Below are positions 3,870-64,000 of a DNA stretch of 64,000 nt, in pieces. The position numbers were made by a program, and so were the translations under genes. The stretch covers positions 81,964,001 to 82,028,000 of the forward strand of contig OX597818.1 of the NCBI GenBank assembly GCA_951406725.2, in the 5' to 3' direction. Source of the DNA: Octopus vulgaris (Eukaryota). The notes beneath the pieces are model-generated. The model searched no databases and was not told where the DNA came from. It saw only the letters and a list, made by a program, of their open reading frames with translations. Numbering within the stretch: position 1 is the stretch's first letter; each line of letters opens with the position of its first letter.

Positions 3870-5200
3870 ACTCAAAACGGTTTGGAGGGACACAGCATAA
3901 AGGATGATTATATTCAGTCTCCGTCTCGTTGAAGAATACCATCTTTGGGAGCCGGTACTTGGCATCCAAATCACATGGTCAACCCAGCGGTGAAGACTGT
4001 GAAGCATGCAGGTCTTATTAATAAAAATTCCAGCCCTAAGGAGGATTTAGGTGTAAGGCAACATGTCCCGCCACGTGAGACGGAAGATATTTTGAAGCGA
4101 TCTGATATGGGATGTTGTCTGATTTGATGTGATAAAGGGTCCATCAGTCAAACCCATACGGGAATGTGGATACACAGACAGCTCGATAAACGGCGATTGT
4201 TGTATTTGTTCTAAGTTTCTTTTTCTAAAAGACTCTTTCACTGAGTCTCCCCGAAAGATGTAAGAGAGTTGAAGTATCCGCCCCCCCCCCAAGGAGTCCA
4301 GGATAGCAAAACGAGTCTAACTGTTGTAGAGAAGCATCTTTAATAAGAATGGGCTGAGGGTAAGGTGAGTATGGGAATGCTGATAGGAGAACTTCAGTTT
4401 TGTAATGATTCGCTTGAATACCAAAACGAGAATAGCCACTGTTCATTCAGTTTGTTATGTGTTGAAGGGAAGTGGCGGTATGAGTTGGTGCAACTAGATC
4501 GCCAGAATTCTTATATTTGTACCCCGTTGTTAAGAGGATTATCGATATGGCTTTCAGGCGGCTAGTTTTACAGATGATGTTATCATAGAGCCACTCGATA
4601 CAAATTCCCTCTTTTTCGGTCTACCGGAAAGAAGGATTACAACCATCAGAAAGATGTTAAACAACTCAAAGGCAAGGACGTATCGTCTTTTTAAACCCCA
4701 TCTGACATCAAGACATTATGAGGCTTCACCACCGAGTGTCACTCTCGCTTGATACCGTCGTGAAACTTACGGACAATAAAGAGGAATTTCTGAAGCAGGC
4801 GCCACAACAGAGGACGGGTGACCGCGTCAATCACCTTTGTTAGATCGATGAAGATATAATGATGATACGAATTGACCTTTGGGAAGAGTCAACTGCAGCG
4901 TAATGTGACAGTCATGCTGTCCAACTGTACAATCTGCCATCTTGTTTGTAATGGAGATCTTCACAGCGAAGGTCATTTTATGAGTTCTGTCGTTGCCATT
5001 GGAGACAACCTTCTTGTAGAATGTGCATCCCTCTACCTGTTCAGTAAGAGCACTTTCTTCTGATAAGCGCATGTCGCTAAGAGCTGCTATGTGTCATTGT
5101 AGCATTTCAGCTCGGATGCAACCAGAGCAGTCCTTCAATGGAGACAACCTGAATTAGGAAGATGAAGTTCGAACATTCCAGGAAGCGATTGACAGTATTT
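3870..5200 (-). mobile_element. RTE-clade LINE relic (APE endonuclease and RT fragments, internally deleted and disrupted)
   Basis: Minus-strand translations: ILSIASWNVRT, RTALVASELK and IAALSD/RLSEESALTEQVEGCTF (APE N-terminal motifs); FGIQANHYKTEVL..LQQLDSFCYPG (RT C-terminal); LHRWVDHVIWM (RTE LRW.GHV.RM motif). Stops and frameshifts throughout. Confidence 0.85.
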
Positions 5201-9693: not shown

Positions 9694-9746
<53 letters not shown>

Positions 9747-9784
9747 GAATGGAGCTGAACGACGAATTAACAAAATTCTTTTAA

Positions 9785-9864
9785 TTTCGACATATGTTTC
9801 AAGGCTGCATATTCCTAATTGCGAAGGAATAAGGAGTAGATTATGCCGCTTTCTCATCAGGAAA
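9785..9864 (-). ncRNA. Type I hammerhead ribozyme (inverted copy, 1-nt deletion at base of stem II)
   Basis: Minus strand reads TTTC-CTGATGA-GAAAGCGGCATA..TATGCAGCCTT-GAAA-CATATG-TC-GAAA. Confidence 0.7.
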
Positions 9865-10108
9865 AGCAAGGAACTTATGTCAACATCAAAATGCACAAAA
9901 ATCTTTTAGATGATTGCTCACACGGAGCCCATAGCGATAATGAGTGTCTCTTTAAAATATTCCTTTATAAGGAATACATCCAACCATTTTGACATCACTC
10001 CTTATAAAGGAATATTTTAAAGAGACACTCATTATCGCTATGGGCTCCGTGTGAGCAATCATCTAAAAGTTTTTTTGTGCATTTTGATGTTGGCATAAGT
10101 TCCTTGCT

Positions 10109-10189
10109 TTTCCTGATGAGAAAGCGGCATAATCTACTCCTTATTCCTTCGCAATTAGGAATATGCAGCCTTCGAAACATATGTCGAAA
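10109..10189 (+). ncRNA. Type I hammerhead ribozyme, canonical core, GUC site after 10185
   Basis: TTTC-CTGATGA(10113-19)-GAAAGCGGCATA..TATGCAGCCTTC-GAAA(10174-77)-CATATG-TC-GAAA. Stem I is TTTC/GAAA, stem II closes with G-C, and stem III is the palindrome ACATATGT. Confidence 0.85.
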
Positions 10190-10393
10190 TTAATGGAATT
10201 TTGTTAATTCGTCGTTCAGCTCCATTCTTTCATATATTTATATTTTTAAAATAAACATACAACTTTCCACACGAAAGCACGTAATCCATGCCCTAGGCAC
10301 GTAACTTCAACCATGTTTTTTCTGATGTGAATTTGCTCCTCCCCAGGTATCGGTTAATTCGAATTATCCTAAATAAGATAATTCATTCAACTA

Positions 10394-22680: not shown

Positions 22681-23078
22681 ACACACACACATACACGCAC
22701 CTACTCATACACATGCATATGCACACACGTGTGTGTGTGTATGTATGTGTCCATTACAAACTTCGAACAGACAGTGAGCAGCGACGCCTGCTACATGAAT
22801 AATAACTACATGAATAATATTTTTCTATATGAATAATATTTTTGTCTTATGACTAATTCGTCTTTTGTACTGGGCACCTGGTAGTAAATAATATTACTAC
22901 CCTTCTTGTTCGTATTCGCATATTACATGATGGATTTATTCGTAAAATTCTTCCCGGCATGCCCTGTACTGCCGTATAAATTTTGCGTCTGCGCAGAGAT
23001 TTGAAAAGTTAAGATCTGCTAGTAGTTCGAGATCAACACATGGTCTCACATCGCTGCAGACCTCGATTAAATTAAGGC

Positions 23079-23154
23079 GACTCGCTGATGAAGCTAGCCT
23101 TAGCAAACATATTTTGTGTTTTGCTAGAAAGAAGCAGAAACCGCGGTTCGAGTT
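23079..23154 (+). ncRNA. Type I hammerhead ribozyme motif, array unit 1 (predicted cut after 23148)
   Basis: GACTCG-CTGATGA(23085-91)-A-GCT..long stem II..AGC-A-GAAA(23137-40)-CCGCGG-T-T-CGAGTT. Stem I is GACTCG/CGAGTT, stem III is the palindrome ACCGCGGT, and the triplet is GUU. Confidence 0.8.
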
Positions 23155-23530
23155 AAAGTTATCGGTAAACGTTTTTGTTTTTCACTCTCGATAAATTCAT
23201 CCCCTTTTTGTGTTCCCAGCACTCGGCATCCTAATTTAGGAGCCCTTAATTGTATAACTACATGAATAATATTTTTCTATATGAATAATATTTTTGTCTT
23301 ATGACTAATTCGTCTTTTGTGCTGGGCACCTGGTAGTAAATAATATTACTACCCTTCTTGTTCATATTCGCATATTACATGATGGATTTATTCGTAAAAT
23401 TCTTCCCGGTATGCCCTGTACTGCCGTATAAATTTTGCGTCTGCGCAGAGATTTGAAAAGTTAAGATCTGCTAGTAGTTCGAGATCAACACATGGTCTCA
23501 CATCGCTGCAGACCTCAATTAAATTAAGGC

Positions 23531-23606
23531 GACTCGCTGATGAAGCTAGCCTTAGCAAACATATTTTGTGTTTTGCTAGAAAGAAGCAGAAACCGCGGTT
23601 CGAGTT
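23531..23606 (+). ncRNA. Type I hammerhead ribozyme motif, array unit 2
   Basis: Identical to the unit 1 motif, offset +452. Confidence 0.8.
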
Positions 23607-23982
23607 AAAGTTATCGGTAAACGTTTTTGTTTTTCACTCTCGATAAATTCATCCCCTTTTTGTGTTCCCAGCACTCGGCATCCTAATTTAGGAGCCCTTA
23701 ATTGTATAACTACATGAATAATATTTTTCTATATGAATAATATTTTTGTCTTATGACTAATTCGTCTTTTGTACTGGGCACCTGGTAGTAAATAATATTA
23801 CTACCCTTCTTGTTCATATTCGCATATTACATGATGGATTTATTCGTAAAATTCTTTCCGGCATGCCCTGTACTGCCGTATAAATTTTGCGTCTGCGCAG
23901 AGATTTGAAAAGTTAAGATCTGCTAGTAGTTCGAGATCAACACATGGTCTCACATCGCTGCAGACCTCGATTAAATTAAAGC

Positions 23983-24058
23983 GACTCGCTGATGAAGCTA
24001 GCCTTAGCAAACATATTTTGTGTTTTGCTAGAAAGAAGCAGAAACCGCGGTTCGAGTT
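23983..24058 (+). ncRNA. Type I hammerhead ribozyme motif, array unit 3
   Basis: Identical to the unit 1 motif, offset +904. Confidence 0.8.
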
Positions 24059-24434
24059 AAAGTTATCGGTAAACGTTTTTGTTTTTCACTCTCGATAAAT
24101 TCATCCCCTTTTTGTGTTCCCAGCACTCGGCATCCTAATTTAGGAGCCCTTAATTGTATAACTACATGAATAATATTTTTCTATATGAATAATATTTTTG
24201 TCTTATGACTAATTCGTCTTTTGTACTGGGCACCTGGTAGTAAATAATATTACTACCCTTCTTGTTCATATTCGCATATTACATGATGGATTTATTCGTA
24301 AAATTCTTTCCGGCATGCCCTGTACTGCCGTATAAATTTTGCGTCTGCGCAGAGATTTGAAAAGTTAAGATCTGCTAGTAGTTCGAGATCAACACATGGT
24401 CTCACATCGCTGCAGACCTCGATTAAATTAAAGC

Positions 24435-24510
24435 GACTCGCTGATGAAGCTAGCCTTAGCAAACATATTTTGTGTTTTGCTAGAAAGAAGCAGAAACCGC
24501 GGTTCGAGTT
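24435..24510 (+). ncRNA. Type I hammerhead ribozyme motif, array unit 4
   Basis: Identical to the unit 1 motif, offset +1356. Confidence 0.8.
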
Positions 24511-24886
24511 AAAGTTATCGGTAAACGTTTTTGTTTTTCACTCTCGATAAATTCATCCCCTTTTTGTGTTCCCAGCACTCGGCATCCTAATTTAGGAGCC
24601 CTTAATTGTATAACTACATGAATAATATTTTTCTATATGAATAATATTTTTGTCTTATGACTAATTCGTCTTTTGTGCTGGGCACCTGGTAGTAAATAAT
24701 ATTACTACCCTTCTTGTTCATATTCGCATATTACATGATGGATTTATTCGTAAAATTCTTCCCGGCATGCCCTGTACTGCCGTATAAATTTTGCGTCTGC
24801 GCAGAGATTTGAAAAGTTAAGATCTGCTAGTAGTTCGAGATCAACACATGGTCTCACATCGCTGCAGACCTCGATTAAATTAAGGC

Positions 24887-24962
24887 GACTCGCTGATGAA
24901 GCTAGCCTTAGCAAACATATTTTGTGTTTTGCTAGAAAGAAGCAGAAACCGCGGTTCGAGTT
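24887..24962 (+). ncRNA. Type I hammerhead ribozyme motif, array unit 5
   Basis: Identical to the unit 1 motif, offset +1808. Confidence 0.8.
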
Positions 24963-25140
24963 AAAGTTATCGGTAAACGTTTTTGTTTTTCACTCACGAT
25001 AAATTCATCCCCTTTTTGTGTTCCCAGCACTCGGCATCCTAATTTAGGAGCCCTTAATTGTATATATATATATATGCATACACATATATACATATATATT
25101 TATATTTATATGTGTGTGTGTATATATGTGCGTGTATATA

Positions 25141-63763: not shown

Positions 63764-64000
63764 TTAGAGTATGTTTAGTTGTGGTCTGTATTTTTGAATA
63801 AGATTACTTTCCTTATTTATTCGTGTTTGGTCTGTGGTGTTGTCCGAGCATTGGTATAGTGGGAAGACTAAGAATTTGGGGGACTTATTGTGTGCACAAA
63901 GGTCTAAGTGTCCACTTAGTGGTATCTGTCTTGTGGAGGGGTCCCTCAGTTGTTGTCGGTGAACTGTCATTCTGTCTCTGAGGGTAAGGCTCGTTTGCCC
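63764..64000 (-). CDS. C-terminus of Penelope-like element ORF (GIY-YIG endonuclease), partial; continues beyond window
   Basis: Open frame from the window edge: GQTSLTLRDRMTVHRQQLRDPSTRQIPLSGHLDLC..FLVFPLY..RINKESNLIQKYRPQLN. It has the (YI)GQT, the catalytic R..H helix, the conserved E and the terminal P.LN of GIY-YIG nucleases. Confidence 0.85.
   Translation of the reverse strand, partial: GQTSLTLRDRMTVHRQQLRDPSTRQIPLSGHLDLCAHNKSPKFLVFPLYQCSDNTTDQTRINKESNLIQKYRPQLNIL

Follow-up and report, generated by a model that had tools for sequence, protein, structure and literature searches.

Penelope-like elements (PLEs) leave a recognizable signature in genomes, which consists of partial tandem copies, an inverted 5'-truncated arm, an optional tail and a bias for (TA)n targets (PMC8557442). 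A mechanism has been described for Poseidon (Frangieh et al. 2024, PMC11167929). According to the same source the protein of an anole PLE cuts AT-rich DNA and extends both strands, and initiation takes place at two positions inside the RNA, in agreement with the ends found in the genome. Hammerhead ribozymes with a palindromic stem III cleave as dimers (PMC4209133; PMC7229834). In Xenopus one of nine predicted retrozymes cleaved and eight failed to do so; the available part of that account lists no mollusc among the species sampled (bioRxiv 10.64898/2026.07.22.740005). Mobilisation of retrozymes by PLEs has so far been proposed from their co-occurrence and from similarity to pLTRs, and one PLE has been reconstituted. 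Our literature search (hammerhead or retrozyme together with octopus or cephalopod; supplements, Repbase and Dfam were outside its scope) found no description of a family like the one reported here. The accessible text of PMC8967140 mentions Penelope and no ribozyme.

We analyzed a tandem array within a 64,000-nt stretch of the Octopus vulgaris genome (contig OX597818.1), here referred to as the window. The features of the array were the following:

22761..22801, plus strand: 5' junction, made of a 30-nt piece of a different hammerhead repeat (22761-22790) and a slipped partial unit start (22791-22801)
22802..25061, plus strand: five 452-bp retrozyme units (GUU subfamily of family A), inserted as a single arm whose end is the fixed start site 1 (unit position 452)
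22984..22996, plus strand: 13-nt motif of unit 1, present once per unit, common to the retrozyme clade and located about 90 nt upstream of the core
23079..23154, plus strand: hammerhead of unit 1, predicted cut after 23148; stem I 23079-84/23149-54, core 23085-91, A-A mismatch 23092/23136, palindromic stem III 23140-47
23531..23606, plus strand: hammerhead of unit 2, predicted cut after 23600
23983..24058, plus strand: hammerhead of unit 3, predicted cut after 24052
24435..24510, plus strand: hammerhead of unit 4, predicted cut after 24504
24887..24962, plus strand: hammerhead of unit 5, predicted cut after 24956
25062..25111, plus strand: (TA)n target reached by the 3' end of the array

The units start at 22802, 23254, 23706, 24158 and 24610 and differ from each other at 0-5 positions; TRF reported 22802-25064 with a period of 452, 5.0 copies and 99%. 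The unit has a GC content of 37% and is non-coding, with a longest ATG frame (read round the unit) of 25 aa on the plus and 35 aa on the minus strand. All five units carry a type I hammerhead of the same layout, namely GACTCG, CTGATGA, a 45-nt stem II region, GAAA, CCGCGG and TT, followed after the predicted cut by CGAGTT. The core positions C3 U4 G5 A6 N7 G8 A9, G12 A13 A14 A15.1 and U16.1 H17 were found in each of them. Five non-coding units of about 99% identity, a hammerhead with this stem I, core, palindromic stem III and GUU triplet in every unit, and the five cut positions listed above had already been given in the initial annotation and agree with our analysis. However, it missed a mismatch at the base of stem II and the derived state of the triplet.

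The conservation of the hammerhead was analyzed in 52 de-duplicated full units of family A from 33 loci. Besides N7 (39 U, 13 C) and H17 (31 U, 21 A) the core was fixed in 50 units, the exceptions being one G8A and one A13G, and substitutions common to at least two loci were found at 41 of the 452 unit positions. At the base of stem II all 52 units carried an A10.1-A11.1 mismatch, so that the pair expected at 10.1-11.1 is lacking throughout. It is G-C in family C and mismatched in the other families seen. A mispaired 10.1-11.1 has been used as a criterion for rejection, and U-U variants nevertheless work (PMC3088659). The mismatch thus lowers the status of the motif as canonical, not its status as a hammerhead. 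As judged from the sequences compared, the GUU triplet is derived, older copies having GUA or GUC.

In 48 distinct hammerheads of the families A and B, 98.0% of 1056 cells were paired, compared with 92.7 ± 0.5 in 500 shuffles and 31-43% with slid partners. Four of the 22 hammerhead pairs were altered on both sides between A and B, which mostly reflects one inherited event, the A/B split. The stems I, II and III of family B all differ from those of family A on both sides; family C and at least two further families retain all stems with other sequences. Furthermore, stem III was a perfect or near palindrome in each family compared. Since the stems are kept with changed sequences, the core is fixed and the palindrome is kept, the hammerhead structure is, on this comparative evidence, real and under selection. 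Searches with reversed patterns gave no match in the genome. The 13-nt motif was exact across diverged retrozyme families (484 matches with a core downstream, among them L212-L241; control 0) and is possibly an internal promoter element. In the window (22984-22996) it presumably resembles an NRF1-type site.

The predicted active fold (-11.9 kcal/mol) lies 6 kcal/mol above the minimum free energy fold (-18.0 kcal/mol), and its core stems have a probability of about 0 in a 600-nt context. GUU is a weaker cleavage triplet. Given the A-A mismatch, the triplet and the unfavourable active fold, this variant may be slow. Stem III scored -14.1 as a duplex and +1.9 as a hairpin, which fits cleavage by dimers only. 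The circular monomer had a predicted fold of -110.6 kcal/mol (z -3.4, 60 shuffles).

The unit is dispersed in the genome, with 158 matches among the 40 scored of 1059 candidates. Exact 22-mer copies of the hammerhead numbered at least 210 (137 GUA and 73 GUU; reversed control 0). The nearest units sampled at other loci differ from those of the window at 5-8 positions, and by sequence the 452-nt GUU form of the window is placed as a young branch. Family B is 81-84% identical to family A, and family C has a 399-nt unit colinear with that of A. At least five families without an ORF remain colinear, and the retrozyme clade appears to have persisted without one. Units differ at a mean of 2.8 positions within arrays (32 pairs) and of 14.3 between loci (1294 pairs). 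In the array of the window five of the seven variable sites are private to the locus. The units 3 and 4 are identical and have two private changes in common; at least one local event, either a duplication or a conversion, therefore reshaped the array later. Beside an intact family A array at L066 a degraded duplicate rich in deletions was observed (4514-4968), which is possibly an assembly artefact.

To describe the insertion ends, 92 loci were fetched (the 30 best of the 158 matches, the first 30 of the 137 GUA and of the 73 GUU copies, and two more) and merged into 48 places with 75 arms; they represent best or first matches and not a random sample. Two fixed sites account for 63 of the 75 arm ends, and 12 lie elsewhere. 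Site 1 (unit positions 449-452) was used by 26 arms and site 2 by 37, with 17 ending at positions 113-115 and 20 at 121-122. TA-rich DNA follows 62 of the 75 arm ends. The 5' ends were scattered and the longest arms reached 2260 nt. Clustering of the 5' ends at the predicted cut site was considered and rejected (2 of 75 within 5 nt, 1.8 expected). Head-to-head arms were present at 20 of the 48 loci of family A and 10 of 29 of family B. Among these inverted loci site 1 was combined with site 2 in 14 of 20 (A) and 5 of 10 (B), only 19 of 30 overall.

The dispersed copies with fixed 3' and ragged 5' ends at 48 loci show that the family moved by retrotransposition. Two internal 3' ends, an inverted 5'-truncated arm and a microsatellite target are features of insertion of the PLE type. 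The array studied here has a single arm, whose 3' end is site 1 in (TA)n. On its 5' side neither (TA)n nor a target-site duplication nor an inverted arm was found, and the two pieces of the junction (22761-22790 and 22791-22801) meet over 2-4 nt of microhomology. This junction could have arisen by a template switch between two ribozyme RNAs or by insertion with deletion. The repeat from which the 30-nt piece stems bears a U3-A8 hammerhead about 15-20 nt further on (L243-L248).

The initial annotation had filed the array with the non-LTR retrozymes and considered its hammerhead as probably acting as a dimer. Covariation and the kept palindromic stem III support both proposals, and the ORF-less low-GC unit and the dispersed tandem copies support the former. 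What did not hold is the view of a lone array; it is rather one copy of a dispersed, (TA)n-targeted mobile element with Penelope-type ends.

Three putative structures near the two 3' ends, here named Pa, Pb and Pc, were obtained from separate folds of the families A, B, C and others:

23215..23326, plus strand: long-range helix Pa, 23215-23222 pairing with 23319-23326; it spans a unit junction and encloses site 1
23332..23353, plus strand: hairpin Pb (unit 79-100; in unit 1 22880-22901), candidate RT start signal; 14-22 nt before site 2 (unit 114/122, here 23367/23375), a site used at other loci
25033..25052, plus strand: hairpin Pc (unit 424-443; in unit 1 23225-23244), candidate RT start signal; 9 nt before the 3' end at site 1

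In Pa and Pb together, 4 of 15 pairs were changed on both sides (20 aligned sequences). Pc was missing from the consensus of these 20 sequences, owing to its absence from family C and to gaps in the alignment at this place. The pairs of Pa, Pb and Pc had probabilities of 0.77-1.0 in the folded circular monomer. All 24 loci of family C, the family without Pc, ended at site 2, none at site 1, and none was head-to-head. Compared with 30 of 77 head-to-head loci in A and B this gives a Fisher p of 7e-5, which is overstated since all loci of family C belong to a single lineage. In two other families, which have a Pc-like hairpin, loci with ends at site 1 or with inverted arms were found (L226, L234 and L236). 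These observations suggest that there are two start signals, independent of each other and both needed for inversion; family C might use another PLE helper. A wider proposal, which we put forward only tentatively and hold to be possible and not yet probable, is that of a long-lived, self-standing clade of ORF-less circular RNAs with two stem-loop start signals for the Penelope RT. The use of one signal per DNA strand would give the inverted arms and the 'tail', and family C would be a natural knock-out lacking one hairpin, one site and all inversions.

On balance, we consider it rather probable that a Penelope-like (probably Neptune-type) RT-endonuclease made the array in trans, as one insertion of a dispersed hammerhead repeat family without an ORF, on unit-length RNA that is predicted to be cut by dimeric hammerheads and was probably circularised. 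Tandem copies would be transcribed, as contigs from members of other subfamilies hint. Adjacent hammerheads would pair via the palindromic stem III and cut, as the conserved structure and the literature suggest. According to computed folding, ligation of the monomer would then yield a stable circle with the ribozyme fold switched off. The PLE enzyme would nick (TA)n and begin cDNA at AUAU-like points, which lie directly 3' of Pc for site 1 and of Pb for site 2; these ends are observed, and the hairpins are their putative signals. Since PLE initiation in vitro did not depend on homology to the target (PMC11167929), the AUAU match may be incidental. By continuing past the cut site the cDNA would form tandem units with a ragged 5' end, the pattern seen in the genome, and priming on both DNA strands would produce the head-to-head arms that are likewise observed. 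At this locus insertion would have proceeded via site 1.

A linear cut monomer would give only 105 nt from site 1 or 219-227 nt from site 2, with the 5' ends piled up at the cut. Since arms extend to 2260 nt and 5' ends do not coincide with the cut (2 of 75), the template was a circle or an uncut multimer. The likeness of units within arrays and the stable circular fold favour the circle without proving it. The same element and a PLE-type enzyme would also work with an uncut linear multimer from the source array, the hammerhead being slow or late and the circle unneeded, an alternative which we take seriously and yet regard as rather unlikely. A homogeneous multimer explains arms through the cut site equally well, in the anole PLE the RNA is used without processing and the ribozyme depends on the protein (PMC11167929), and the disfavoured active fold, the A-A mismatch and GUU would fit a ribozyme of this kind. 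On the other hand, core and stems are conserved over families to about 80% identity and beyond, retrozymes of coral, mussel and axolotl accumulate as circles (PMC7229834), and variants within arrays are mostly private to their locus, as in five of seven cases here.

RNA is on record as the source of none of the listed runs. Contigs of four runs guessed to be RNA, each from a different study, covered 28-30 of the 30 bins of the unit; as contigs they carry no information on strand, ends or circles. Three of these runs carried mainly the GUA subfamily, and the locus-specific A23233 was in no contig of the four. Two X13 contigs close the monomer loop; tandem DNA or RNA would do likewise, so that they fit the linear multimer as well as the circle. 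In the flank control the non-repeat flank was largely uncovered even in a DNA-like run, and no contig crossed the 5' junction. Additionally, part of the words of the unit was present under five other organism codes.

For the preferred reading, an insertion made in trans from a probably circular RNA, a helper enzyme is required. Intact RT+GIY-YIG ORFs of 781 aa with a CX4CX2C (Neptune-type) linker are present in the genome, and their elements likewise end in (TA)n. A young Neptune-type PLE with many near-identical copies (L037-L070, e.g. L054:781-5470) contains an upstream ORF of up to 479 aa and the 781-aa ORF. In its 3' UTR TGACGTC and GATTGG boxes are repeated, and the hammerhead there has a U3-A8 double change. 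In the hammerhead of a second Neptune-type family (L059, L062, L197-L207) position 4 is C or U and 10.1-11.1 is a U-U mismatch; the two 3' ends of this family lie in (TA)n at a distance of about 32 nt. Arrangements on both strands were found at 2 of 27 and 2 of 9 loci of the two families, many loci lacking the length to reveal them. No clearly matching hairpin was found at the ends of the autonomous PLE families. A short motif which by eye seemed shared with the Neptune 3' UTR was not supported by blastn or profile searches.

Helpers related in sequence were sought by blastn and profile with queries from the families A and B, then A, B and C, first in 40 and later in 60 GIY-YIG loci, which covered 60 of the 148 listed places (of 6136 candidates). 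None was found in these 60 loci, the only matches being nearby retrozyme copies. A screen of the family loci with the 781-aa protein detected no RT or endonuclease joined to the unit, its few matches being separate neighbours, and no PLE protein match was found near the array. Without an ORF, and with no PLE protein near the array or joined to family copies, the unit is not an autonomous PLE. At the end of the window (63767-64000, minus strand) a C-terminal GIY-YIG fragment of a PLE was observed, which is 51% identical to the 781-aa protein. The window also contains the hammerhead of an unrelated repeat (10105-10190, plus strand, within about 9740-10230; core 10113, GUC triplet, stem III palindromic), which is arranged head-to-head next to (TA)n.

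These searches bear on the proposal that the unit is a terminal repeat (pLTR) which an autonomous PLE left behind on 5' truncation and which unequal crossover then multiplied locally, a route put forward in bioRxiv 10.64898/2026.07.22.740005. We consider it improbable for this family. Xenopus retrozymes do match pLTRs (same preprint), the units 3 and 4 with their two private changes show local duplication or conversion, and our PLE comparison covered only the portion of listed places given above. Against it stand the screened family loci without a joined RT or endonuclease, the 60 PLE loci without a profile match beyond known retrozyme copies, the at least five colinear families without an ORF, and arrays with partial end units and fixed 3' ends in (TA)n. 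That the array is an ordinary minisatellite with a chance hammerhead-like motif is most improbable: the Rfam search proposed in the initial annotation gave no hammerhead for the array at gathering score or up to E=10, and 10.1-11.1 is non-canonical, but covariation, the fixed core and dispersal with fixed ends refute this as far as chance is concerned.

The family bears on how animal retrozymes are copied and on why Penelope insertions have inverted arms and an optional tail. The start sites of this 452-nt substrate are mapped, candidate RNA signals and a natural deletion variant are at hand, and intact candidate enzymes occur in the same genome, which makes the PLE proposal directly testable. 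Moreover, the family supplies a natural A10.1-A11.1 hammerhead.

Among the known systems the autonomous EN+ PLEs, of the Neptune type by their linker (Craig et al. 2021, PMC8557442), resemble the family in their microsatellite targets, in a hammerhead located close to the 3' end, in having two alternative 3' ends, and in partial tandems and an inverted 5'-truncated arm. In contrast to them the octopus unit has no ORF, and 114-122 nt lie between its ends instead of a 30-40-nt tail. The two Neptune-type families sampled in the same genome are not similar to it in sequence. Unlike for the Xenopus retrozymes, no pLTR homolog or parent was found here in the 60 GIY-YIG loci compared, and circles and cleavage are predicted.

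The metazoan non-LTR retrozymes are closer (Cervera and de la Pena 2020, PMC7229834; Li, Clavereau and Pollet 2026, bioRxiv 10.64898/2026.07.22.740005). The 452-nt unit is longer than the RNAs of 170-400 nt tested there, and its 45-nt stem II region, A10.1-A11.1 mismatch and GUU triplet set it apart. Targeting of (TA)n, two fixed internal 3' ends and head-to-head arms, all seen here, do not figure in the available parts of those accounts. Common to both are non-coding units arranged in tandem and a few hundred bp long (GC 37% here), one type I hammerhead per unit with a short palindromic stem III, dispersed copies from monomers to multimers, co-occurrence with PLEs and a stable predicted fold. 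With its tandem, non-coding, low-GC units, a single hammerhead in each and no LTR layout, the octopus array family would thus, from its sequence features, belong to the non-LTR retrozymes by everything testable here save the canonical 10.1-11.1 pair. The class is a known one, and this family is a new member of it.
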